32,000 nucleotides of DNA from Aliivibrio fischeri ES114 (GCF_000011805.1 NC_006841.2); one strand, 5' to 3'; counted from the first letter of the stretch, positions 2,916 through 14,917 are shown. The notes: generated by a model not told the origin, from the letters alone. Made by a program: numbers and translations.

Positions 2916-3191
2916 TAAATACCTTTGTTTTTTGATAGTTACTTTAAATTTATTTATCAATTAGTTAGCTAAATAAAATTCAATTAAAATAGTGTAATTT
3001 TAGTATGTTACAGAATAATGATGGATTAAAACTAATGAAGTAGATGTTACTGAGAGATTTATGGCAAGTACGAAACAGGAGCAGATGTTTGAAATGTTGC
3101 AATCTTACAAGTAGAGCTAATTTAATTATTAATAATGCATTGTTAAAGTAGCGTAAATGATGCAAGCACCACTCACGCAACTTATTTGAAA

Positions 3192-3401
3192 TTAAAGCGC
3201 TACAACGTTAGCAGCTTGAGGGCCTTTTTGGCCTTGCTCAACTTCAAAAGAAACTTTTTGGCCTTCAGCAAGAGTTTTGAAACCTTCTGAAGCGATAGCA
3301 CGGAAATGTACGAATACGTCAGCGCCGCCGTTATCTTGAGTGATGAAACCAAAACCTTTTTCTTCGTTAAACCATTTAACGATACCAGTTGTTTTAGACA
3401 T
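3192..3401 (-). CDS. cspA: cold-shock protein, CspA family (single CSD)
   Basis: 69 aa, [36 protein letters not shown]..., with RNP1 (KGFGFI) and RNP2 (VFVHF) motifs. The SD is aaGAAGGGacataatATG. The cspA symbol denotes the family only; the exact paralog is not determinable. Confidence 0.95.
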
Positions 3402-3583
3402 ATTATGTCCCTTCTTAGTAAGAATTCATAAAAATCGCATTATGCGATGTGCTTGAGCTTGAATTATTAAATGTGGCGATAAAGCTAAGGGAGACACTGA
3501 GGATAACAACACTTACGAAGAAATTCTGAGGGCTTACTTTTACTTGATGTTCACTAACAACTCTGAGCAACAGAGCGAGAACA

Positions 3584-3687: not shown

Positions 3688-3720
3688 ACAAAAAAACCGC
3701 CATAACAATGACGGTTTTAT
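3688..3720 (-). terminator. rho-independent terminator ending the 13-kb minus-strand cluster
   Basis: Minus strand reads AAAACCGUCAU-UGUU-AUGGCGGUUUUUUUG. The stem is about 9-11 bp with one mismatch, followed by a 7-U run. It lies 31 nt downstream of the stop at 3751. Confidence 0.75.
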
Positions 3721-3750: not shown

Positions 3751-4653
3751 TTAAATTGCTTGTTCATTCATATTAAATGTAAATTGTACATCTTGGTTTG
3801 AATATTCAGGTAGCGACATTTTAATTACCGGAATAGCAATACCTGTCGTATTGTAGAAATCTTTCTGATAACTTTGAGCTTCACCTAACCCAGAGCCATA
3901 TACATAGAAGAATGCTTGAATAGGTAAAACATTACCAATATTTTGATCCCAAAGGCCAAGTCTTAACTCATTTTGAGTACCAAACGATTCACTAGAAATC
4001 TTAGCCATTGATTTGATACCTTCAGCAAAATTTTTCGTTGTATCAGACGAAGCTCCTTCTCTTAGATTAAATGAACATTGGTGATGGTGGTTAGCATTAC
4101 CTTGATAATAATGATTGCTCCAAGCACCTGCTGTATAAATATTTTGAGCATCACAAGACTGACTTCCAGAATATCCTGGTGTTTTTCCACAACCATTACT
4201 ATCACGTTCATTTGTCGCTGCATCAATAGGGAAGAAACATAAATAATCTAAGTCAATTTTTCCAGGAGCAAAATCGCCTCTAAAAATTTGATAAATGATA
4301 TATCCACTCTTATAACCATAAGCTAATTTCGAATATTTAGAATCTTTACGAAGGTAAGAGAAGGAAACTCCACCACTTTTTATGGCATTTGGACTTGGAT
4401 TCCAAACGTGGTAATTACCCGGCTTATTACCTCGAAAGGTTATTCCTGAACACAAAAACGCAGGAGAACCATGACAATCTTGCGAAGTATCATTGTAATC
4501 ACTTCTTAAGGCCTGCACCAATGAATCACCTTGTTGTTGTGTAATAATGCTATTACTACGACTTACTGCAGCATCATCATTTGCCAACACAGACAAGCTA
4601 AGGGGTAGAACAAACCAACTGATCAATTTTATAAATTTCATAATATATTCCAT
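3751..4653 (-). CDS. secreted ~300-aa protein, paralog of 17564-18442; tentatively halovibrin-like (HvnA/HvnB-type secreted NAD+ glycohydrolase/ADP-ribosyltransferase). The family call is unverified.
   Basis: Signal peptide MKFIKLISWFVLPLSLSVLA (the likelier start is ATG 4641, preceded by GGA). It aligns end to end with the 292-aa protein at 17564. Shared blocks are SP(A/S)FLC(S/T)GI, HVWNP, (V/I)SFSYLR.DSKYS.LAY, SGYI.YQIF, HQCSF, LPIQAFFY, TTGIAIPVIK and a C-terminal EQAI. The halovibrin idea rests on size, secretion, paralog number and my recollection of Vibrio fischeri hvn genes, not on a sequence comparison. Confidence 0.85.
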   Translation of the reverse strand: MEYIMKFIKLISWFVLPLSLSVLANDDAAVSRSNSIITQQQGDSLVQALRSDYNDTSQDCHGSPAFLCSGITFRGNKPGNYHVWNPSPNAIKSGGVSFSYLRKDSKYSKLAYGYKSGYIIYQIFRGDFAPGKIDLDYLCFFPIDAATNERDSNGCGKTPGYSGSQSCDAQNIYTAGAWSNHYYQGNANHHHQCSFNLREGASSDTTKNFAEGIKSMAKISSESFGTQNELRLGLWDQNIGNVLPIQAFFYVYGSGLGEAQSYQKDFYNTTGIAIPVIKMSLPEYSNQDVQFTFNMNEQAI

Positions 4654-4668
4654 ATATTTAAGTTTTAA

Positions 4669-6858
4669 TTAATACACATCACTGCGATCAATACACGTTA
4701 CGTAATCGGTGTACGTGTCATAACCGTCATCGCTATTACCATTACTCAAATCAAGCCAGAAATGAGCATCGGGATCAGAACCTGATCCTGATACGGTAGA
4801 CGACCAGTAATATGTATTGGTTGGCCATTGATATTTCCCCATATCACCATATTCATTCTGCAATGTTTTTAAGTCCCATATCGTTGGTAACGTCCATGAC
4901 GAGCTGCCACCAATACGTAAACCTTCACAAAATTGCTTTGCTGTGTCTGGATGATATTTAGGATATTTATAGCCGTTTTCATTGTTGTACCCATCATAAT
5001 TATGATAAGAACCAACCTGATCTAATTGCTCAACATTGACTGGGCAAGAAACTTTAGCGCCGCTTGATAACGTCACCATTCCACCATCGTTTGAGCAAGT
5101 AGGTGTATATTTATCATCATCTTCAGTGATAGCTAATGACGTTATACAACTTTGATTTCCTTCAATTTGCCCTGTACTTTTAGGAACAACACAGAACTCA
5201 ATGTGCTGGCCAACAAGAGAGGCATCATTTTTTAAATTGAAAGTAGAAGAGAAATGCTCTGTTCCTTTGTCTCGATATAATTCTTCGTGAGTTTCCACCA
5301 CAGTCCACGTGCGCAAACTGTTTTTTTCTTCTGCACCAGAATCAGCAGCAACATAAAGATAATCACCTTTTAATTTCTCGCCTATAACTGGAACATCAGG
5401 AGTTATTCGTAACGATGACACCGAAGGTAAACTCTCTTCCCCTGTCTTCCATGTCGTTATTTCATCACCACAACTAGGGTGATATGCAAGAAAATAAGAT
5501 ACGCTGTTATCAGGAGCTTGCGTGGAGTACAAATCAATAGGTATGCCATCGCAAGTCAACGTAATATCATCAACATTAGCTCCATTAGCCCAACTGTTTA
5601 AAATATTACTTCCTGCCCCCAAGCCTTGGTGGTTTACAGCAGCAAATGCATTACCACTAGCAATGGTTTCACTAGCAGGAGCAACAAATGCATTTAAAGC
5701 ATCAGGTGACAGTTCTGCACTTTGTAACGCATCAATATAATTCCCGTCACTATCAAGAACCAAAGCACCTTCATTAGATGTTCTCGTCACTAAACGGGTA
5801 TTTTCTCCATACGTTTTTTTAGTATGTAAATTGCCCCATTGCGCCAGTTTTCCGGTTGATACATCCGTAGCAATAAAGCTGCATCGAGTCGCACTTAACT
5901 GAGGACTTTTCATATTTGATAAGAAATCAGAAGTTGATGAATTTATCTTTCCTCCACAAGCATCATCCCCCCACGCATAAATAGTTGAATTAGAGATAAC
6001 CGCAAAGGCTTTTTCTGTTGCTTGTATGCTCGAACTTCCAGAACTATTTAAAATCGAGGAAATATCACTAGGAATAGTGCCCGACTCTGAATTATCTCCC
6101 CCCCATGCAACGTATTTATTACTCTGTGTTTTAACTAGAAACGCATCTTTCGTAGCATAAATAGACTGTACAACTTCATTTTTTAAAGCCTTTTTAGCCT
6201 CTTTAGATATGGTTCCCCCAGCGGCACCATCACCCCACGCTTTAATCTTTCCTGATTCTAAAAGCGCAACCCAAGCGATAGACTCTCCAATAGTACCTCC
6301 AGAGTGATAAATTGAGCGTATAATGTCGGAAGAAGTAATTGCATCAATAGAGCTCTCAGTTCCTGTCGACGGAGTATATTCAATAAGTGAACCATCGGTT
6401 TTCACTATCATGAATGATTCTGTTCCTGGGTAAACTGACTGGATATTTTCAATCGATTTTTCTTCACCGCGAGTAACACCATTTCCCCAAGCGACCCCAT
6501 TTTTGGAGGTTGGGTTTACAGCGAGAAAGGCACTACCAGATGCATACATTTGGCTAGGTTTAATAAACGTTAATAATTCATCTAATGTACTTCCTGCTTC
6601 TATTTCCCCCCCAAACTGCGGATTACCAAATGCCATCACATTTTGATATTCACCCTTATCTTGTATGATAAAAGCACCTGCAGCGAGATTAATCCCAGCA
6701 GTACCTGGTAATGGTTCACTATTATTAAAGCGATAATTATTTGTTTGATTAAACCAACTGTTATTCGCTTCGCTTTGAGGGATTAACATTGGTTGTGCAG
6801 CCATCACTACTGGACTTAATACATTAGCCAATAGAAGTGCGATAATAGACTTTTTCAT
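4669..6858 (-). CDS. secreted multidomain protein: RCC1-like beta-propeller repeats, an Ig-like module and a C-terminal DUF1566/Lcl-C-like (C-type-lectin-fold) domain
   Basis: The likely start is ATG 6858 (caAAGGAataATG, signal peptide MKKSIIALLLANVLSPVVMA). The ORF-track start at 6903 would overlap the upstream gene. There are about 8-9 repeats of AF[LA]V...G.[VI].AWG....GG.I. A module follows with W..V...G..I.FCVVPKS.TG..G...C. The C-terminus reads FCEGL..GG.SSWTLPTIWDLKTL...YQWPTNTYYWSST...HFWLDLSNG...YVTCI, which matches my memory of the DUF1566 consensus (W.LP...EL..L...YWSS...aw.v....G...yv.Cv). Confidence 0.85.
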   Translation of the reverse strand: MKKSIIALLLANVLSPVVMAAQPMLIPQSEANNSWFNQTNNYRFNNSEPLPGTAGINLAAGAFIIQDKGEYQNVMAFGNPQFGGEIEAGSTLDELLTFIKPSQMYASGSAFLAVNPTSKNGVAWGNGVTRGEEKSIENIQSVYPGTESFMIVKTDGSLIEYTPSTGTESSIDAITSSDIIRSIYHSGGTIGESIAWVALLESGKIKAWGDGAAGGTISKEAKKALKNEVVQSIYATKDAFLVKTQSNKYVAWGGDNSESGTIPSDISSILNSSGSSSIQATEKAFAVISNSTIYAWGDDACGGKINSSTSDFLSNMKSPQLSATRCSFIATDVSTGKLAQWGNLHTKKTYGENTRLVTRTSNEGALVLDSDGNYIDALQSAELSPDALNAFVAPASETIASGNAFAAVNHQGLGAGSNILNSWANGANVDDITLTCDGIPIDLYSTQAPDNSVSYFLAYHPSCGDEITTWKTGEESLPSVSSLRITPDVPVIGEKLKGDYLYVAADSGAEEKNSLRTWTVVETHEELYRDKGTEHFSSTFNLKNDASLVGQHIEFCVVPKSTGQIEGNQSCITSLAITEDDDKYTPTCSNDGGMVTLSSGAKVSCPVNVEQLDQVGSYHNYDGYNNENGYKYPKYHPDTAKQFCEGLRIGGSSSWTLPTIWDLKTLQNEYGDMGKYQWPTNTYYWSSTVSGSGSDPDAHFWLDLSNGNSDDGYDTYTDYVTCIDRSDVY

Positions 6859-6883
6859 TATTATTCCTTTGTTATTATTTTTA

Positions 6884-8725
6884 TTACTCATTGAACACAC
6901 CATCAGGAACAGAATTGCCCCACATCACGACAGCATTGCCCCCCCTAACATAAAACCCCCCTGCAGTTTCCTCCTCGAACTCAGAAAACGTATTAAAACT
7001 ACCAATTTGAGAAATATCAGAAAGATCATTAATAGCGCTACGTAAATTCAAACTAGAATCATCAGAAGAAAGACACTGATGCCCATCAGGAATACAACCT
7101 CCTTGGTTTAGCCCTCCCCACGCATAAACATCATCCATCGCCTTCATCAAAAAAGCGTGATTGTTGCCAATGACATTAGCTATTGAGAAAGTAGGTATGT
7201 TGCTAGGTAAGGTTCCGCCATATTTCTTATCTCCCCACACAAAAAGATGTGAGCTGTCGTATAAAGCAATGGCTTTTTCTGTTGATGCACAATGAAAATC
7301 ATCGGTAATCGTTGTTGCATCTAACTCTGTTTGAATATTTGATGGGATATAACCAGCACCGTAATCATTTCCCCATGCAGCAACCCCTTTATTGCCATCA
7401 GAAATAGCAACAAACGATGCATCAGAAGCACATAAACGGGTAATAGGGTTTGTATTAGTAAAGTCCGTAGCCGCAGAACTTAGTAACCCACCATAATATG
7501 AATCACCCCATGCTTTTACCTTCCCTGATGTGGTGATCCCAGCAAAGGCATAACGAGTCGCGTACACCGTTTGGATATTTTGGTGCTGCTCAAATGGACT
7601 ATGTCCCCATGAATAAGCATTTCCATCATTATCGAGTACAGTAAAACTGTCTTGAGACGTGACAATATCTTTAATTGATAAAGCGGATTTCATTTCATCA
7701 GGTAATGTGCCGCCATATATGGACTGCCCCCATGCAACAAGCTTTTGTTTACCACTTGGCATATCAAACACAGCTAAAAATGCTTGAGCGGTATGATAAA
7801 TTGCCTTTGGTAAACCATCTTTGCTTAACAACTTATCAATACGTTTTTGTGCTTCACTTGATATTGCTCCACCACGAACCATATCCCCAGCCGTATTTAT
7901 TCCACCATCTTTTAAAATGGCAGCCATAGCATAAGGCGCTGGAAAAATTTCTTCGACTTGATTTATATAAGATGGCGTCGTATCAAACTGCCCCCAAATA
8001 ATGGCATCATCTGACTCACTTTTAATCGCAAAGCCATCAAGCATAGAATACACTTCTTTCGCTTTAGGTAAGTTAGGGGCATTAGTCACTTCAGAGCCAT
8101 AACCAATTAATGAAGCATCGCCCTCAGAGCTAAGAGATAACGCCGCAGAATTACTTGTTACAAAGGAAACATCATCTTTTGCATCCGTGATTGGTGCATT
8201 GTATAAACTGAAGTTTTTAGTTTGATTTAAATAACTGAATAACGCATTTTTATTATCAATATCTCCATTAGTAATTAATTCACTTCTGCATTCATTTTCT
8301 GATGGAGCATAACTTCCAGGCAGATAAGTTACTTTAATACAGTAGCGTAAATATTTATTATTTGTATCTTTTGGTACATTAATTGGAATTTCAGGAAACC
8401 CATCACCAGATATATTCCCGCAAGTTAATAATCCATCTAATTCACATTCCTCCTTATTATTATTGATAATACTTTTTAACGTATCGTCCGTTATTTCACA
8501 CTCAGATGAATCATCATTTAAAATACAAGCACTGTATAATACCTTTATATCTGAGTCTGGTGTGGTTTTATAATTTATATTTGTTATTTCATTTTCTTTT
8601 GGTGGTGAAGATAAATGAAGCTGATCAATAGAAACCCTTGGTAGCTTTGGAACAATAGCATTAGCCATATTCCAGCTACTGGATAGAATGGTAATAGTCA
8701 TCCCTACCCAATATTTATATTTCAT
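6884..8725 (-). CDS. secreted protein: N-terminal Cys-rich module plus RCC1-like beta-propeller repeats (paralog of the 4669-6858 propeller)
   Basis: Signal peptide MKYKYWVGMTITILSSSWNMANA. About 8-9 repeats, e.g. AFLAVFD..GKQKLVAWGQSIYGGTLP, AFAGITTSGKVKAWGDSYYGGLL, SFVAISDGNKGVAAWGNDYGAGYIP, AIALYDSSHLFVWGDKKYGGTLP, AFLMKAMDDVYAWGGLNQGGCIP. Confidence 0.85.
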   Translation of the reverse strand: MKYKYWVGMTITILSSSWNMANAIVPKLPRVSIDQLHLSSPPKENEITNINYKTTPDSDIKVLYSACILNDDSSECEITDDTLKSIINNNKEECELDGLLTCGNISGDGFPEIPINVPKDTNNKYLRYCIKVTYLPGSYAPSENECRSELITNGDIDNKNALFSYLNQTKNFSLYNAPITDAKDDVSFVTSNSAALSLSSEGDASLIGYGSEVTNAPNLPKAKEVYSMLDGFAIKSESDDAIIWGQFDTTPSYINQVEEIFPAPYAMAAILKDGGINTAGDMVRGGAISSEAQKRIDKLLSKDGLPKAIYHTAQAFLAVFDMPSGKQKLVAWGQSIYGGTLPDEMKSALSIKDIVTSQDSFTVLDNDGNAYSWGHSPFEQHQNIQTVYATRYAFAGITTSGKVKAWGDSYYGGLLSSAATDFTNTNPITRLCASDASFVAISDGNKGVAAWGNDYGAGYIPSNIQTELDATTITDDFHCASTEKAIALYDSSHLFVWGDKKYGGTLPSNIPTFSIANVIGNNHAFLMKAMDDVYAWGGLNQGGCIPDGHQCLSSDDSSLNLRSAINDLSDISQIGSFNTFSEFEEETAGGFYVRGGNAVVMWGNSVPDGVFNE

Positions 8726-8746
8726 TATATTTATTCCGAACAGATA

Positions 8747-8770
8747 AAAGCCTCTAATAAAAGAGGCTTT
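8747..8770 (-). terminator. intra-cluster hairpin (9-bp perfect stem, 6-nt loop); weak terminator/attenuator or mRNA-processing/stability element
   Basis: AAAGCCTCT (8747-8755) pairs with AGAGGCTTT (8762-8770). On the minus strand it is followed by UAUCUGUUCGG, which is only modestly U-rich. It lies in the 66-nt gap between the 400-aa and 613-aa genes. Confidence 0.4.
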
Positions 8771-8791
8771 ATTATTATTTTATATTGTTAT

Positions 8792-9994
8792 TTATTTAGG
8801 GATATCTTCACACACTACTAATGCTAATGAAGCAGGATCTTGTCCAACAACTTTAAATTCGCCGCCACCAGTACTATCACTTGGCGTGTTGTAGATATAA
8901 CCTACTGCATTATAGTAATTAAAGTAACTACCCGGTTCTGTTGCATCTTTTTCTGAACTCCACAACATACGAACATCGTATGGCCAGTGTTCAGTTTTAC
9001 CTCCTGCTGTTTCAACCGTTAAGTAACTAGAAAATGCAGTTGGATTTGATACTAATCTTAAACCACGGTTAGTACACTCTTGTGCAGCAATATCTTGAGG
9101 TAATGCAGCAAAGCCATATACATCATCGCCTGTCATTTCATCTGTTGCTACACCGTTTCCATCAGTACGAACAATAAATTCTGATTCTGTAGCTTCATCA
9201 CCTTCATCATAATCGGTTTCAATTGACAACATTGGACGATAATAGTTATCAGCAACATTACCACCAGGGAAGTTTTCTTGTATTGTGAAGTTATCACCAC
9301 CAATACCAGAACCACCGCCTGCTTCAGAAGATAAGGTAACAGAGATCGATACCGTAAGTGGCATTCCTGCTTCTACTGGAACTTCAGCTGTATCTGGATC
9401 TTCATCGTTATCAAAAGTTTCAGGCACTAAAAATTGTTTATTTGATGGGCTAGTTACTGTTTTTACTAACGCCCCATCAATTCGCCATTGATAAGTGGCA
9501 GCAGTAATTTCACTTTCATCAATCGGAGTTGTTTCCCCCTTATTATAAACACTATAAGAAAGATTCACGACTTCTGTTGCTGCAATGAATTTTCCAACCA
9601 ATACGTCAGAAACTTCTTTTTCATTGATACGTGGTGCAAAGGCATCCAATGTTTGAACGCTGTTTAATGACATTTCATTAGAACATTGAATAGAAGATGT
9701 AAGATCGTCTTGATTAATATATGAAATACATGCTGTTAGATTTTGGCTATTACCTAAAATATCAGGAGTAACAATCAATTTCTTACCAAGACCAACAATT
9801 GTGCCTTTTTCATCCTTCCATACAAATTTTGGATTTTTAATCTCATCTTTATTTAGATCAGATTTAACAACCAAAATACTATTTTCACGTATACCTTCAT
9901 CGTTATGATCAATATATACATTTGCAGATGCTGTACCAACAACACCAACAGTTAATAAAGATACCATTGCCAACTGGTTTAATTTAAAATACAT
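8792..9994 (-). CDS. secreted protein with Ig-like repeat modules and a C-terminal DUF1566-like/lectin-like domain
   Basis: Signal peptide MYFKLNQLAMVSLLTVGVVGTASA; SD tggttGGAGtataaatATG. Ig-like motif: ATYQWRIDGALV. A YYRP motif is followed by ...AAQECTNRGLRLVS...RMLWSSEKD...VVCED, which resembles the C-terminal lectin-like domain of the 4669 gene. Confidence 0.8.
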   Translation of the reverse strand: MYFKLNQLAMVSLLTVGVVGTASANVYIDHNDEGIRENSILVVKSDLNKDEIKNPKFVWKDEKGTIVGLGKKLIVTPDILGNSQNLTACISYINQDDLTSSIQCSNEMSLNSVQTLDAFAPRINEKEVSDVLVGKFIAATEVVNLSYSVYNKGETTPIDESEITAATYQWRIDGALVKTVTSPSNKQFLVPETFDNDEDPDTAEVPVEAGMPLTVSISVTLSSEAGGGSGIGGDNFTIQENFPGGNVADNYYRPMLSIETDYDEGDEATESEFIVRTDGNGVATDEMTGDDVYGFAALPQDIAAQECTNRGLRLVSNPTAFSSYLTVETAGGKTEHWPYDVRMLWSSEKDATEPGSYFNYYNAVGYIYNTPSDSTGGGEFKVVGQDPASLALVVCEDIPK

Positions 9995-10133
9995 ATTTAT
10001 ACTCCAACCACTATACGTGGCTATTATTTATAATTTAGATAAAGTTATTTAATCCTTATCTATTTAAAGTACTGCGTTCAATAATTTAAACACAGTGTTA
10101 TATAATCAAATGAAAACTCATTTAATTATAAAA

Positions 10134-12011
10134 TCATTGCCCGACACATAATGGATTAATAAATTCACTATATGGGTAAAAAAATGAAACTTCTCTTTCT
10201 TCTTCAAAAATGACGTCCGAAAGAACAAAACTAAAATCACCTATATAAGAAGAGGTAAAACTCGCATTAGACGCATGGTGATTATTAACAGCCGTTATCC
10301 AACCTGTTGTAAATGAGTAATACGGAACAATATCAGGGTCTTTATACGTTCCAGATTCAGCTCTCTTCATACCTAAAACTGAACGATTCAATGCAGCAAG
10401 ACTATATTTAGATGACGCTAGCTCTAACATTCCTTCTTGATCTAAAGAATCAACTTCAGAACCTTCACTTAAAACATCGAGTCCTGGAACGGCCAAATAC
10501 CAATGTTTAGTATCACTATTAAGCAAGTTACATGATTGAGCTTCTGTACTGTGCTCATACACTGACCATTTATAACCAAACACGGCTAAAGGATTATCAT
10601 TCGAAGGAGCAGGAAACTCACCTTCACTAAATTTCAGTTTTTGCGCATTTTTTGCTTCTGTTATTGTTAATGGCCTATGGTAATAAGAGTCATCTCTTGT
10701 ACCACCCAAAGAATCTAAATAACGTCCTTCTGCCGACCCAGGGATCAAGATTTCACGTATCGGCTCTATACCTCGAGAGTAAAATAATGGTTTATCTGGT
10801 GTTTCGGGATAATATGCACCACCTGTGACGCACTCAGTATCATCTGTACATATCTCAGCGTCCCCTTTTGCCGAAAGAGGTGTCGCTTCTGAAGCATTAA
10901 CACAATATTCATACCCGAGTTCAGTACTATCAATACAAAAACTGATGTCTTTACCAATAAAATACGTAGCATCTTTAGGTAGAGGATCTCCATTTGCTTC
11001 AGCAACAAGCCAATCCCAATCATCAAGTTGCTTATCAAGACTCACTTGTTGATCTCTACTGCTCCCCATATCCATTAAGCCCGGAACTAATTCCACAGCT
11101 TTATCTCGAGTACCTATGGTGTAAGATAAGTTAGTACCTACACCACCTTCTCCTTCAGTAATCTCAACTCTGTCTTCTGCTTTATCGTTTGTCCAACCAT
11201 CTTGTGCGCTTAAATTGGCTTTCCATTTTGTATCACCAGTTAGTCCATATATTTTCGCGGTTAACGTGGCACCATATTCCAATGAGCCAGTAATTTTAGT
11301 GCCAATTCCTTTTGTTGAATCGCAGTTAAGTGGACCAACTTGAGTACCCTCCCCAATTGGGAGAACACAAGCTCGAATGGTTTTATCAATATAACGGCGG
11401 TTAATATCATACATACAATCCTTACCAGCACCGGATTCACATTGAGTAAACTCTGGCATATGATCATCGCCCAAAGTATGAGTAACAAAACCAAATATAC
11501 TTTTACCTTCGGGGATACCTGCACCATTATCATCATAGGTATAAGAAGCACTTATGGTATTTCCAGGTAGAGGAAAAACTGACGAATCTATCGTAACTTC
11601 AGCTGAAATATCTGATGAAAGCCCAATACTTAAATCTGTACAATATTCGTCACCAACTAATTCACCTGTTTTTGCTGATGGAGTAACACATCCAGATACC
11701 GTTACACCTAACAACGCACTTGCATCCGAAACAGGCAAGATATAATCATCAGCATCAGGAATCTCGACACCATCTTTTAACCAACGAAAAGTAAACTGTT
11801 CAACATCAGGCTCGTCTCCTTCTTCATCGTAATACGTTCCAGTCAGCTCCAACTGTTTATCTGCAATATTACCAATAATCTGTTCATCAAGAACTTGAGG
11901 GGCATGGTTTGATGTCGGATCCGTAGGCCGACTAGGCATAAGATCCGTATCCCCATTCTTACAACTAACTAAAGAGACCAAAGTAGTTAATACAATAATA
12001 GATTTATTCAT
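10134..12011 (-). CDS. lipoprotein with tandem Ig-like repeat modules and a YYHRP-containing C-terminal domain
   Basis: The best start is ATG 12011: MNKSIIVLTTLVSLVS|C with lipobox LVSC. It lies 1 nt after the TAA of the upstream OmpA-like gene (translational coupling). The ORF-track start at 12047 lies inside that gene. Modules include FTFRWLKDGVEIP...GVTVSGCVTPSAKTGELVGDEYC. Confidence 0.85.
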   Translation of the reverse strand: MNKSIIVLTTLVSLVSCKNGDTDLMPSRPTDPTSNHAPQVLDEQIIGNIADKQLELTGTYYDEEGDEPDVEQFTFRWLKDGVEIPDADDYILPVSDASALLGVTVSGCVTPSAKTGELVGDEYCTDLSIGLSSDISAEVTIDSSVFPLPGNTISASYTYDDNGAGIPEGKSIFGFVTHTLGDDHMPEFTQCESGAGKDCMYDINRRYIDKTIRACVLPIGEGTQVGPLNCDSTKGIGTKITGSLEYGATLTAKIYGLTGDTKWKANLSAQDGWTNDKAEDRVEITEGEGGVGTNLSYTIGTRDKAVELVPGLMDMGSSRDQQVSLDKQLDDWDWLVAEANGDPLPKDATYFIGKDISFCIDSTELGYEYCVNASEATPLSAKGDAEICTDDTECVTGGAYYPETPDKPLFYSRGIEPIREILIPGSAEGRYLDSLGGTRDDSYYHRPLTITEAKNAQKLKFSEGEFPAPSNDNPLAVFGYKWSVYEHSTEAQSCNLLNSDTKHWYLAVPGLDVLSEGSEVDSLDQEGMLELASSKYSLAALNRSVLGMKRAESGTYKDPDIVPYYSFTTGWITAVNNHHASNASFTSSYIGDFSFVLSDVIFEEEREVSFFYPYSEFINPLCVGQ

Positions 12012-12012
12012 A

Positions 12013-13053
12013 TTAAGACCCAACCCTACGATTAAACTGAATAACAACTCGACGATTCAGAGCCGATTCATTTCGCATAAGGTCTTCATTTACAAGCGGG
12101 TCTGCTGAGCCTTTAGAGTTAATGAGAATTCTTTCTTCATCCACACCAGCTTTAATCAGCATATCTGCAGCGTAAGTTGCTCTTCGTAAAGATTCGATAT
12201 CATTTGCTGAATCCGTTCCTTTTGCGTCGGTGTAACCTGTGATGCTTACTTTCCCTTGTCCCTGCTTAACGCTTAACGCCAGTTCATTCCATGAGTGCCA
12301 TTGCTTACTTTCAACAACAAAACGGCTTTCCCCAAATTCAAAATGAAGCGTAACTTGCTCTGGATAATAGGTTGCTTCAGGGACCAGCTTTACAATCGTT
12401 TCAGGCTTAAGTTCTGGCTCTGGTTTTGCTTTAAATTTATAAGTCAAACCAAGAGAGGTGAAGTAGAGGTCACTTTTACCAGTTTTAGCATTACCTATAC
12501 CGTCAATAATTGAGGTTCCAAATCGCAAGCTCCAATTTGGAGCAAGCGCATATTCAGCACCAATTTCCCAAATATCGTCTATGCTAGAATCGGATTCAAA
12601 CATGCCAAGATGCACATTATCGTTGCCCGAAACAGATAAATAGTTATAAGCGGCACCACCTTTCGCATACAAATCAAGATTATCGGTAACCGGTAGTGAT
12701 AACTTCACAGATAAGTCAACACCCGTAGCATTTGAATAATAACCATCACCAACCCCATAAAAAGTCTTAGGGCTTCCGTAATCATGCCAGCTACCTTCTA
12801 AGGCAAACCAAGAATTAAACTGATAACCACCATAAAGACCACCACCAGTGACATAATTTTTACACTCGATTGCATTTGATGAGCACGCACCTAAAAAGTG
12901 ACTAACGCCAACCTGCCCACCTAAATACACATGAGATTGTTCTTCTTTTGATTCAGAAGCTATAGTTCCATTAGAGATAATTAACATTATTGCCAATAGT
13001 AAGGCTTTTATTTTTATTATGTAATTATCGTTATAAATTTTATGTTTTATCAC
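12013..13053 (-). CDS. OmpA-family outer-membrane protein (N-terminal beta-barrel plus C-terminal OmpA/peptidoglycan-binding domain)
   Basis: GTG start at 13053 with an upstream AAAGG. Signal peptide ...IKIKALLLAIMLIISNGTIA. Alternating aromatic/Gly barrel strands (YLGGQVGVSHF, GLYGGYQFNSWFALEGSW, LGLTYKF). The C-terminus ITGYTDAKGTDSANDIESLRRATYAADMLIKAGV...NRRVVIQF is the OmpA_C-like motif. Confidence 0.88.
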   Translation of the reverse strand: MIKHKIYNDNYIIKIKALLLAIMLIISNGTIASESKEEQSHVYLGGQVGVSHFLGACSSNAIECKNYVTGGGLYGGYQFNSWFALEGSWHDYGSPKTFYGVGDGYYSNATGVDLSVKLSLPVTDNLDLYAKGGAAYNYLSVSGNDNVHLGMFESDSSIDDIWEIGAEYALAPNWSLRFGTSIIDGIGNAKTGKSDLYFTSLGLTYKFKAKPEPELKPETIVKLVPEATYYPEQVTLHFEFGESRFVVESKQWHSWNELALSVKQGQGKVSITGYTDAKGTDSANDIESLRRATYAADMLIKAGVDEERILINSKGSADPLVNEDLMRNESALNRRVVIQFNRRVGS

Positions 13054-13120
13054 TTTACTTTACCTTTATAACTAGCCAAATTTAAAACAAAGACAAGCTT
13101 CATTTTAATTTACATTCTAT

Positions 13121-13408
13121 TTATGTATTTATATAAGACTCAGATTGAGCAGATGATTGAAATCGACACTTATTTGCCATCTCTAATGATTTCAATATAC
13201 TCTTCATTCTTTCTTCACTTATTGATGATTTTTTTTCTTTAGGCTCTTTAATATCAAAGCTCTTCTTACTTACGAATTTATCGTCACTGTTTTTTATACG
13301 ATATTCAAAATAACTGGATAATATTAAGTCTAAAGAAATACTTTCATATCTCTCATAACAACGCTCTAAGCGTTTAATTGTTCTTCTCTCTACAGGATTC
13401 ATTTTCAT
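13121..13408 (-). CDS. hypothetical small charged protein (95 aa); possibly the first gene or regulator of the surface-protein cluster, or non-coding
   Basis: Open frame only. The SD is weak, the composition is K/E/S-rich and helical, and no motif is recognised. Confidence 0.3.
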   Translation of the reverse strand: MKMNPVERRTIKRLERCYERYESISLDLILSSYFEYRIKNSDDKFVSKKSFDIKEPKEKKSSISEERMKSILKSLEMANKCRFQSSAQSESYINT

Positions 13409-13848: not shown

Positions 13849-14652
13849 TTAGCTCGATAAATAGGTAATAAGTGTCTTTTGAGCCAATTTAATATCATCG
13901 TCTGATACACCTATATACCTTAAGCTGACACTTTCTGATTTATGCCCTATGGTGGTCATGACAAGACTAATGTCCTTACCTGTTGCGAAATATAAATGCC
14001 TCGCAAAACTCTTCCTTAATGTATGACACCCTACTTTAGCTGTACTCCCTATTTTCTCTAACACCTGAGTAAGCTTAGAAAACACAGTCCAGCAAGCCTG
14101 ACGAGTTAATAAACCATCCACCCCTTTAGCTCTATTACTCAGTAATGTTTTACGACTAAAAACAGAATCGCTGTTAATGTGTCTAAACTTCTCCTTTCTT
14201 TGCTTAAGCATAAAAACCATTTTTTTACTGAATAAGAAGGAGCGAGTTACGGGTGGTGTCGCTTTTTTAGCTGCAGAAACCCTTTCATTCACCATTAATA
14301 TCCACTCTTTAGGAAGCAGTTTTTCAATTTGATAAAATGGGGTTATGTACGTTGCCGTCAATTTTTTAACGTTATGTTGGTAATGAAGAATAAGTTCCTC
14401 TTTAACTTGTTTAAGTACCCGATGTTTGGCTCTTGCTTTACGTGCTAATGTACCTTTACTTTCAATAACTTCACAATGACCGCTTCTAAAATCAATATCA
14501 GAATATTTTAATCTTAATATATCGCTGATCCGTAATCCTGTCTCAAGTCCAATATTCCAAATTAATGAAAATGCAGGATCATGATTCTTCTGTAAATATT
14601 TTGCCGCATACTTTAAATGCTCTTTGTTTTTTATTGGTTCTACATAAGCCAT
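13849..14652 (-). CDS. tyrosine site-specific recombinase/integrase (catalytic domain only, with an internal insertion)
   Basis: Catalytic residues read in order: R41 (ETGLRISD), K (ESKG), HxxR (CHTLRKSFARH), H (IGHKS), Y (LRYIG). The first Arg is only about 40 aa from the N-terminus, so there is no SAM-like core-binding domain. An extra stretch of about 50-60 aa lies between the beta-hairpin Lys and the HxxR box. Confidence 0.88.
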   Translation of the reverse strand: MAYVEPIKNKEHLKYAAKYLQKNHDPAFSLIWNIGLETGLRISDILRLKYSDIDFRSGHCEVIESKGTLARKARAKHRVLKQVKEELILHYQHNVKKLTATYITPFYQIEKLLPKEWILMVNERVSAAKKATPPVTRSFLFSKKMVFMLKQRKEKFRHINSDSVFSRKTLLSNRAKGVDGLLTRQACWTVFSKLTQVLEKIGSTAKVGCHTLRKSFARHLYFATGKDISLVMTTIGHKSESVSLRYIGVSDDDIKLAQKTLITYLSS

Positions 14653-14713: not shown

Positions 14714-14917
14714 ACATACCCAAGAAGTTAATAACAATAATATCAGTATAGTTCTATATCATTGAGTAATCTTAAAAAGATTAACTATAATTTTCGATAT
14801 CAACTTAGGTTAAATTAAGGTTTTGCCTGAAATAAAGCAGTTTTAAATTTCGCTACATTGTCATTCAAAAAGCACTAGGTAGTATTGTTTATATTCTATA
14901 GCGTCTTATAAAAACTC

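Follow-up and report, generated by a model that had tools for sequence, protein, structure and literature searches.

We examined a 32,000-nucleotide stretch of Aliivibrio fischeri ES114 DNA (hereafter the window) in which six genes and a small open reading frame (ORF), orf95, lie on the minus strand within positions 3751-13408. Nine tested window proteins are exact matches to A. fischeri sequences, several of them with ES114 accessions, and the product of the last gene, which has a signal peptide, exactly matches 'halovibrin HvnA [A. fischeri ES114]' (AAW88165.1/Q5DYI1). The locus is the hvnA (halovibrin NAD+ glycohydrolase, or NADase) locus of this squid symbiont. We find that hvnA closes a cluster whose other five genes encode an OmpA-family protein, a lipoprotein, a secreted protein of 400 aa (p400) and two RCC1-like propellers, that these five genes recur in the same order on a distant contig, and that the C-terminal part of the lipoprotein and p400 are hypervariable between strains. 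The terminal gene is already known, and the upstream five-gene module and its polymorphism appear to be undescribed. VF_A1095 to VF_A1100 have no main-text mention in the searchable literature and none in the supplements of three ES114 omics papers, and no paper in that literature gives a name to the upstream genes, in line with an earlier reading of this DNA from its sequence alone (the original prediction), which had known of no named system for the combination.

Genes and boundaries of the hvnA cluster

The ORF listing reproduced the gene map of the original prediction exactly, and listing and sequence both agree with its coordinates, gaps and TAA-n-ATG coupling site (Table 1). The intergenic gaps, read 5' to 3' from orf95, are 67, 1, 139, 66, 25 and 15 nt. 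The strong terminator predicted at the end of the cluster is present, and since a cspA-type leader lies directly beyond it, the 3' boundary of the cluster is fixed. A type I signal peptide or a lipobox was found in six products but in neither form in that of orf95, so that the prediction's claim that every product is exported stands for six genes and is at odds with its counting of orf95 as a possible seventh. Its statement that the cluster encodes no enzymes fails because the terminal gene, which it had rightly thought halovibrin-like, is hvnA, the product of which has been characterised as an NAD+ glycohydrolase that is secreted. In its record the 400-aa protein bears the name VF_A1098 and the flanking cold-shock gene is VF_A1094 (cspG); locus tags VF_A1095 to VF_A1102 are mostly inferred from accession order, and we take the replicon to be ES114 chromosome II.

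Table 1. Features in and around the hvnA cluster, in window positions.
Feature	Position	Strand	Basis or remark
cspA-type thermoregulator leader of cspG (VF_A1094)	3149-3579	minus	Rfam, 116 bits; spans leader and coding region
Intrinsic terminator	3693-3718	minus	11-bp stem, 4-nt loop, T run; closes cluster
hvnA (VF_A1095)	3751-4653	minus	300 aa; exact match to AAW88165.1
RCC1-like propeller, 729 aa, with Ig-like domain and InvE_AD/Lcl_C tip (VF_A1096, tag inferred)	4669-6858	minus	Pfam
RCC1-like propeller, 613 aa, with N-terminal Cys-rich Ig-like region (VF_A1097, tag inferred)	6884-8725	minus	Pfam RCC1_2
Intercistronic stem-loop (attenuator or mRNA-stabilising hairpin)	8747-8770	minus	9-bp stem
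p400 (VF_A1098), secreted, two Ig-like domains and C-terminal tip, hypervariable	8792-9994	minus	400 aa; AlphaFold2 model
Hypervariable cassette: lipoprotein C-terminal part, intergenic region, nearly all of p400	8857-10455	no strand	Break in blastn alignment between strains
Outer-membrane lipoprotein (VF_A1099, 'lipoprotein, putative'): tether, FN3/Ig rod, InvE_AD-like tip	10134-12011	minus	625 aa from ATG
OmpA-family protein (VF_A1100, tag inferred): 8-strand barrel and peptidoglycan-binding domain	12013-13053	minus	346 aa; Pfam
orf95 (VF_A1101), small charged cytoplasmic protein	13121-13408	minus	95 aa; doubtful module member
Tyrosine recombinase (VF_A1102), neighbour outside module	13849-14652	minus	Pfam Phage_integrase, 1.5e-16
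hvnC, third halovibrin paralog	17564-18442	plus	292 aa; 53% identical to HvnA

The OmpA-family protein and the lipoprotein

The OmpA-family protein matches both OmpA_membrane (PF01389; E = 6.4e-23, 81.9 bits) and OmpA (PF00691; E = 2.8e-11, 44.1 bits) above cut-off. Its start is ambiguous between a GTG at 13053, which gives 346 aa, and a position near 12987; several strains are annotated with proteins of 322-325 aa, which would truncate the signal peptide. The stop codon and the next start, read directly, form TAA-t-ATG (12015-12009), and judging from this junction the OmpA-family and lipoprotein genes are translationally coupled. The lipoprotein has the lipobox L-V-S-C at residues 14-17 with lysine at +2, and the cysteine is invariant in its four closest relatives. 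Its AlphaFold2 (AF2) model, built from a 15-sequence alignment (predicted local distance difference test, pLDDT, 72; predicted template modelling score 0.73), shows a disordered tether at residues 1-34, a rod of beta-sandwiches and a less confident C-terminal domain.

Foldseek searches with this model returned tandem FN3/immunoglobulin (Ig) proteins, and against the PDB and BFVD such generic matches were all that was found, with no specific phage relation. Relatives of the lipoprotein bear IG_AIR9 repeats, and three of five family C-termini match the adhesion domain InvE_AD below cut-off; in the family alignment the A. fischeri C-terminus keeps the invariant R-P, W, Cys and terminal Cys positions.

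A full HMMER scan found 76 relatives of the lipoprotein among 1.84 billion representatives. A lipobox, by our own pattern, is present in 33 of 75 family hits, many of the others being fragments or repeat-only matches. Common to many of the closest relatives is a lipobox followed by the tether C-N-N-G-D-x-G-L-L-G (11 of the 33 lipobox-bearing hits fit this pattern), and in A. fischeri the sequence running on from the lipidated cysteine is C-K-N-G-D-T-D-L (window 11961-11927, minus strand; relatives P0262-P0292). This conserved motif may be a sorting or partner-binding signal. On the barrel side, a C-x6-C motif just after the first strand (window ~12880-12905, minus strand) is invariant in all seven aligned barrels (window, L012, L013, L015, L017, L018 and L020, the L numbers denoting loci compared), and the OmpA-type barrels that partner these lipoproteins form a subfamily of their own.

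p400 and the two propeller proteins

The AF2 model of p400 (pLDDT 70.5) comprises two Ig-like sandwiches and a C-terminal alpha/beta domain. Over this C-terminus, p400 shares 34% identity (E = 4e-25) with the tip of a lipoprotein that has an OmpA partner on a Vibrio parahaemolyticus plasmid, and the C-terminus of the p400 orthologue of contig L012 matches InvE_AD over nearly the whole profile, if weakly (E = 0.007). The 613-aa protein matches RCC1_2 at 35.6 bits (cut-off 22). In the 729-aa protein, whose gene is preceded by an AAGGA Shine-Dalgarno sequence, WD40_RLD is matched and the RCC1 repeats are sub-threshold, yet it is homologous to the 613-aa protein (E = 2e-20). Its C-terminus matches InvE_AD (E = 2.4e-8, 34.9 bits; cut-off 32) and, below the Pfam cut-off of 34.9 bits, Lcl_C (PF07603; E = 9.8e-7, 29.5 bits); NCBI names it 'DUF1566 domain-containing'. 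To sum up, each of three products, the lipoprotein, p400 and the 729-aa propeller, has at its C-terminus a tip of the invasin/Lcl type or related to it. Pfam scans of sub-domains in the lipoprotein, in p400 and in the N-terminal part of the 613-aa protein gave no significant match, and none of HvnA, the tips and the 729-aa protein had a relative in sequence searches of the PDB. The original description of envelope or secreted proteins is thus borne out, with an outer-membrane (OM) anchor, a lipoprotein of Ig repeats, a protein of Ig-like domains plus a tip, and a pair of RCC1-like propellers.

These architectures bring to mind proteins of the Vibrio cholerae biofilm matrix, in which RbmA consists of tandem FN3 domains and Bap1/RbmC of a propeller plus a lectin. 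p400 and the propeller-lectins could likewise form a matrix scaffold, with the OmpA-lipoprotein pair as its docking site. Tandem Ig/FN3 folds, the presence of RbmA among the weak Foldseek matches (ranks 48-49) and the lectin-type C-termini of the secreted propellers are in keeping with this idea, which we nevertheless consider unlikely: RbmA is matched weakly (E about 5e-3, TM score 0.15), there is no sequence relation to Bap1/RbmC, and no polysaccharide locus adjoins the cluster.

The five-gene module in a distant, plasmid-like Vibrio contig

The best relative of the lipoprotein, P0260 (35-37% identity by BLASTP and HMMER), is encoded on L012, a 34-kb contig with a GC content of 36.6% that is plasmid-like, its first 1.9 kb matching a Vibrio lentus plasmid. 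Genes for a barrel (186 aa), the lipoprotein (651 aa), a 380-aa protein and two RCC1-like proteins (584 and 637 aa) follow one another there with gaps of 0, 22, 41 and 14 nt and a strong terminator after the last. For each of the five window proteins, the counterpart in L012 is the best match, with identities of 24-35%, including 32% over the full length between the 613-aa and 584-aa proteins and 35% between residues 2-493 of the 729-aa protein and the 637-aa protein. Because the same five genes stand in the same order in so distant a contig, their clustering is not due to chance. A jacalin-like C-terminus that we had guessed for the 637-aa protein found no Pfam support. Genes for a response regulator, a hybrid histidine kinase and a second OmpR-type regulator precede the module on this contig (L012 3099-7466), and the last of their stop codons overlaps the start of the barrel gene.

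The pairing of barrel and lipoprotein extends further. In every relative locus examined a barrel or porin gene lies directly upstream, of OmpA type in seven and of OprD type in one. The OmpA-type barrel ends 0-18 nt before the lipoprotein relative in L013 (GC 43%), L015 (GC 53%), L018 and L020, with another TAA-g-ATG among the junctions; in L016 and L017 an OmpA gene is upstream and the junction is fragmented. The loci with this pair include a plasmid of Vibrio sp. ED002 and one of V. parahaemolyticus. On the V. parahaemolyticus FORC_022 plasmid, a gene for the type II secretion pilotin gspS-beta lies 4 kb from the OmpA/Ig-lipoprotein pair (L020 408-785). Among contigs of the genome collection that we scanned, only the A. 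fischeri species representative was matched, and both metagenome scans gave no match.

The OprD-type case lies on a Vibrio diabolicus plasmid (L019 6610-10620), where the lipoprotein relative follows the porin inside a locus for chondroitinase, sulfatase and an N-acetylgalactosamine phosphotransferase system (GalNAc-PTS). This setting, together with an architecture of lipid anchor, Ig-like domains and lectin-like tips, would suit a surface glycan-capture system like SusE/F, in which polysaccharide is held at the OM for uptake and not for attachment. We regard such a role as improbable for the A. fischeri proteins, since neither their cluster nor that of L012 contains a glycoside hydrolase, lyase or transporter and since ancient multi-allelic tips, described below, would be unusual for nutrient-binding proteins.

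Within A. fischeri, recombinase, orf95 and cluster are syntenic in every strain examined. The recombinase is 100% identical in all strains, orf95 is 100% conserved between strains and has no family matches, and neither gene stands beside the related modules elsewhere. The cluster's GC content is not deviant. These observations do not support the suggestion that the recombinase marks recent horizontal acquisition, yet related modules are present on Vibrio plasmids.

A hypervariable cassette spans the lipoprotein tip and p400

We compared the window with four other A. fischeri strains; allele counts refer to the sequences retrieved and are lower bounds. At the protein level, identity between strains is 95-100% for the flanking genes and for most genes of the cluster, the 729-aa protein being 95-99% conserved, and only 50-58% for p400. 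The lipoprotein, compared in bins, is 94-100% identical up to residue 450 and 30-70% identical after it. The blastn alignment between strains is interrupted over the cassette given in Table 1, with protein identity already falling from about lipoprotein residue 450 (~window 10660). Residues 1-450 are at least 95% identical, the region from 450 to the end (~450-625) falls into at least four types (minimum identity 48%), and p400 has at least six allele types (minimum 53% among the retrieved sequences). Lipoprotein-tip and p400 types co-vary. HvnA has at least four types (minimum 77%), whose distribution is independent of the cassette: the p400 proteins of L007 and L011 are identical, their HvnA proteins 76% identical.

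Synonymous divergence (dS) is 1.0-1.3 in the cassette compared to 0.03-0.23 in neighbouring genes, and the ratio of nonsynonymous to synonymous divergence (dN/dS) is 0.25-0.34 compared to 0.05-0.12 in flanking genes; for hvnA, dS is 0.8-1.0 at a dN/dS of 0.15. The alleles are old ones, sharply bounded by recombination, and not a product of recent decay. With a synonymous divergence roughly 5- to 30-fold that of its flanks and a sharp recombination boundary, the cassette ranks among the most polymorphic stretches that we encountered. Molecules that face a partner able to discriminate, be it a host receptor, an immune cell, a phage or another strain, typically show this pattern.

Polymorphic toxins of the contact-dependent inhibition (CDI) or Rhs type typically have such a layout too, in which a variable C-terminus precedes a variable gene that co-varies with it; on that reading the lipoprotein C-terminus would be a delivered toxin and p400 its immunity protein. 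We hold this to be extremely improbable, given that Pfam and sub-domain scans found no toxin domain, that the lipoprotein C-terminus aligns with the InvE_AD-type adhesion domains of its relatives, and that p400 is a 400-aa secreted Ig protein with a lipoprotein-type tip of its own.

The same polymorphism bears on which way the lipoprotein faces. From its lysine at +2, the usual Lol-dependent placement in the inner leaflet of the OM is predicted, and the OmpA_C domain of its partner binds peptidoglycan, so that an inward-facing lipoprotein and an OmpA-type protein might together form a peptidoglycan-associated periplasmic scaffold. This is very unlikely in our view, as invasin-type tips and an allelic polymorphism this deep are the mark of proteins that are exposed, and rod lengths differ widely among the relatives (575-1026 aa). 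The adhesion-type tip and the polymorphism suggest instead that the lipoprotein is exposed at the surface.

Transcription of the cluster

The layout of the cluster is that of an operon (same strand, short gaps, a single terminator), with an internal hairpin as caveat. This stem-loop, absent from the original prediction, has a folding energy of -12.7 kcal/mol (z = -2.6), lies 21 nt before the ATG of the 613-aa gene and is invariant in six strains though it abuts the hypervariable p400 gene; the corresponding junction of L012 holds a GC-rich hairpin that lacks a U tract. One operon, as originally proposed, is thus plausible from the layout, with an invariant hairpin dividing the cluster into three plus three genes. 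Because the hairpin is conserved and leaves no promoter room before the 613-aa gene ATG, we favour a single transcript with attenuation or differential stability, which would supply more barrel, lipoprotein and p400 than propellers and HvnA.

Two further ideas about regulation were dropped. A sigma-54 promoter, considered since flrA affects halovibrin A, had no match in the intergenic regions. Phase variation by the adjacent recombinase was rejected, the inverted repeats being at chance level, repeats or silent cassettes being absent, the orientation being the same in six assemblies, and orf95 and the recombinase being missing from the other loci. A 16-nt inverted repeat (15 of 16 positions matched; 13073-13088 and 14840-14855) brackets orf95 and the recombinase, at the level expected by chance in AT-rich DNA, and no segment is inverted among the six assemblies as a Fim-type invertible switch would be.

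hvnA and other halovibrins

HvnA is 47% identical to HvnB and 53% to HvnC. HvnA and HvnB, first taken for ADP-ribosyltransferases, are secreted NAD+ glycohydrolases (Stabb et al. 2001, as summarised in PMC3510237), and it is from this summary that we take the activity of the present hvnA product. The halovibrin papers (Reich & Schoolnik 1996; Stabb, Reich & Ruby 2001; both as cited in PMC3510237) concern the very gene that ends this cluster; as far as it is searchable, this literature treats hvnA as a single gene and does not discuss its place as the last of six envelope genes, how far its alleles differ (77-96% identity, dS up to 1.0) or the nearby hvnC. A second ATG at 4641, with GGA 8 nt upstream, is probably the true start of hvnA, to go by this spacing, a point that the original prediction had not raised. 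The gap from the 729-aa gene to hvnA is 15 nt, or 27 nt from the second ATG, with no terminator between.

A comparable arrangement is found in Pseudescherichia (L022 5569-9485), where a 790-aa gene with Big_1, Invasin_D3 and RCC1-like parts is followed after 59 nt by a 494-aa gene with halovibrin, Big_1 and Invasin_D3 parts; a hairpin lies between the two, and a gene for a 1166-aa inverse autotransporter adjoins them. In A. fischeri, by contrast, hvnB is convergent to gbpA (L021 8001-10533; LPMO_10, GbpA_2 and GbpA_D3), a chitin- and mucin-binding colonisation factor, and hvnC lies 13 kb from hvnA with the recombinase and an efflux pair of membrane fusion protein (MFP) and major facilitator superfamily (MFS) types in between. 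On balance we regard hvnA as cargo that the module gained in A. fischeri.

Whether the cluster has any joint function can be asked from the same evidence. hvnA might be independent and the cluster might consist of two or three transcription units that merely lie side by side, as the hairpin, the 139-nt gap, the solitary hvnA homologues elsewhere and the independent assortment of hvnA alleles would allow. This is quite unlikely, we think, in view of the five genes that are collinear in L012 at 24-35% identity with gaps of 0-41 nt, the barrel/lipoprotein coupling in most loci examined, the lack of promoter room after the hairpin, and the RCC1-like gene that again adjoins a halovibrin gene in Pseudescherichia.

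Other halovibrin homologues were met in varied settings. NCBI records give those of Yersinia, Serratia, Burkholderia and Photorhabdus the name 'N-acyl homoserine lactonase', further homologues are fusions with DUF2599 as in the Pseudomonas aeruginosa PA1914 type, and a halovibrin-like ORF of 28% identity is carried by 71.7-kb V. parahaemolyticus plasmids from farmed shrimp (NZ_CP068626.1 56984-57688).

A candidate surface recognition complex

We propose, with about an even chance of being right, that the cluster encodes a surface complex, anchored to peptidoglycan, for adhesion or recognition, with specificity set by its tip and a NADase co-expressed with it. Its core would be an OmpA-family protein coupled to a lipoprotein made up of a flexible tether, an FN3/Ig-like rod and an invasin-type C-terminal tip, and in A. 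fischeri this core would be extended by secreted p400 and the two secreted RCC1-like propellers, with hvnA as last cistron. The barrel would hold the lipoprotein stalk, and the stalk tip, in a complex with p400 and the propeller-lectins, would contact an external ligand: host glycans or mucus, other cells, or phage. Lipoprotein residues ~450-625 together with p400 would set the specificity of this contact, which would be why several ancient alleles exist. hvnA would be read through from the same transcript, and NADase release would thereby be coupled to adhesin expression.

Several observations weigh against this proposal. The tip of the A. fischeri lipoprotein is called InvE_AD by way of its relatives, in a region where AF2 confidence is low. 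A comparison of the p400 and lipoprotein tips by hhalign was not significant, so that p400 is placed in the same class of tip through the bridges of the plasmid lipoprotein and L012. We know of no 8-strand OmpA barrel that exports lipoproteins, and the lipoprotein could therefore face the periplasm. The terminator-like hairpin after p400 and the 139-nt gap before it are compatible with separate transcription units. Mutants in hvnA and hvnB reportedly colonise squid normally. The hvnA homologue of Vibrio sp. NTOU-M3 (55% identical) is solitary and the L012 module lacks hvnA, and the coupling of the two may therefore be local only. Finally, no tag of a cluster gene turns up in the supplements on the light-organ exudate proteome or on the flagellar regulon.

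Among known systems, the intimin/invasin inverse autotransporters have the same parts, namely a peptidoglycan binder, an OM barrel, an Ig rod and a C-terminal InvE_AD-type domain. In contrast with them, the barrel here is a separate 8-strand OmpA-type protein that has no match to IAT_beta (PF11924) and is not fused to a passenger, the rod is lipid-anchored at its N-terminus, the Ig domains are A9/FN3-like and not Big_1, and there are three extra secreted subunits. By analogy, the module would work most like an intimin or invasin split into separate polypeptides without being a member of that family. VpadF of V. parahaemolyticus, which binds fibronectin and fibrinogen and mediates attachment (PMC4585867), resembles VF_A1099 by description in being a Vibrio protein with its anchor at the N-terminus and with bacterial Ig-like repeats in tandem; unlike for VF_A1099, descriptions of VpadF mention neither an OmpA partner nor a polymorphic tip. 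The sub-threshold Lcl_C-like C-terminus of the 729-aa protein recalls Legionella Lcl and other DUF1566/Lcl_C proteins, although collagen-like repeats are absent and the domain sits on an RCC1-like propeller.

In its logic the module would be closest to Myxococcus TraA/TraB, a cell-cell adhesin in which a polymorphic, lipid-anchored, lectin-like receptor is paired with a barrel/OmpA partner, with overlapping genes and many allele types (PMC6372800). The likeness lies in the lipid-anchored polymorphic receptor, the partner with OM barrel and OmpA domain, the overlapping or coupled genes and the many alleles within a species. The differences are that Pfam finds no PA14, Cys-rich repeat, MYXO-CTERM or TSP-3 in the module, that the TraB model NF033763 matches the OmpA domain only (27.8 bits against a cut-off of 700), that the gene order is reversed, and that the anchor is N-terminal and the variable domain C-terminal here. 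It is conceivable, if unlikely, that the OmpA-lipoprotein pair and the co-varying p400 form a TraAB-like polymorphic adhesin for self-recognition, that is, for kin or strain discrimination. Were this so, cells would stick or sort by cassette type, for example in the aggregates formed ahead of entry into the light organ, the NADase expressed along with the adhesin would have the contacted partner or host tissue as its target, and the OmpA barrel with its C-N-N-G-D lipoprotein would represent a previously undescribed class of two-partner adhesin in marine gammaproteobacteria.

Vibrio fischeri ES114 is a model of beneficial animal-bacterium symbiosis in which strain-level differences in colonisation are an active question. 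If the cluster encodes a surface recognition complex as proposed, VF_A1098, the tip of VF_A1099 and VF_A1100 would be candidates for strain specificity. The long-known and functionally puzzling secreted NADase gene hvnA is placed at the end of a conserved envelope module, and the barrel-plus-lipoprotein pair would be a recurrent adhesin design on Vibrio chromosomes and plasmids.

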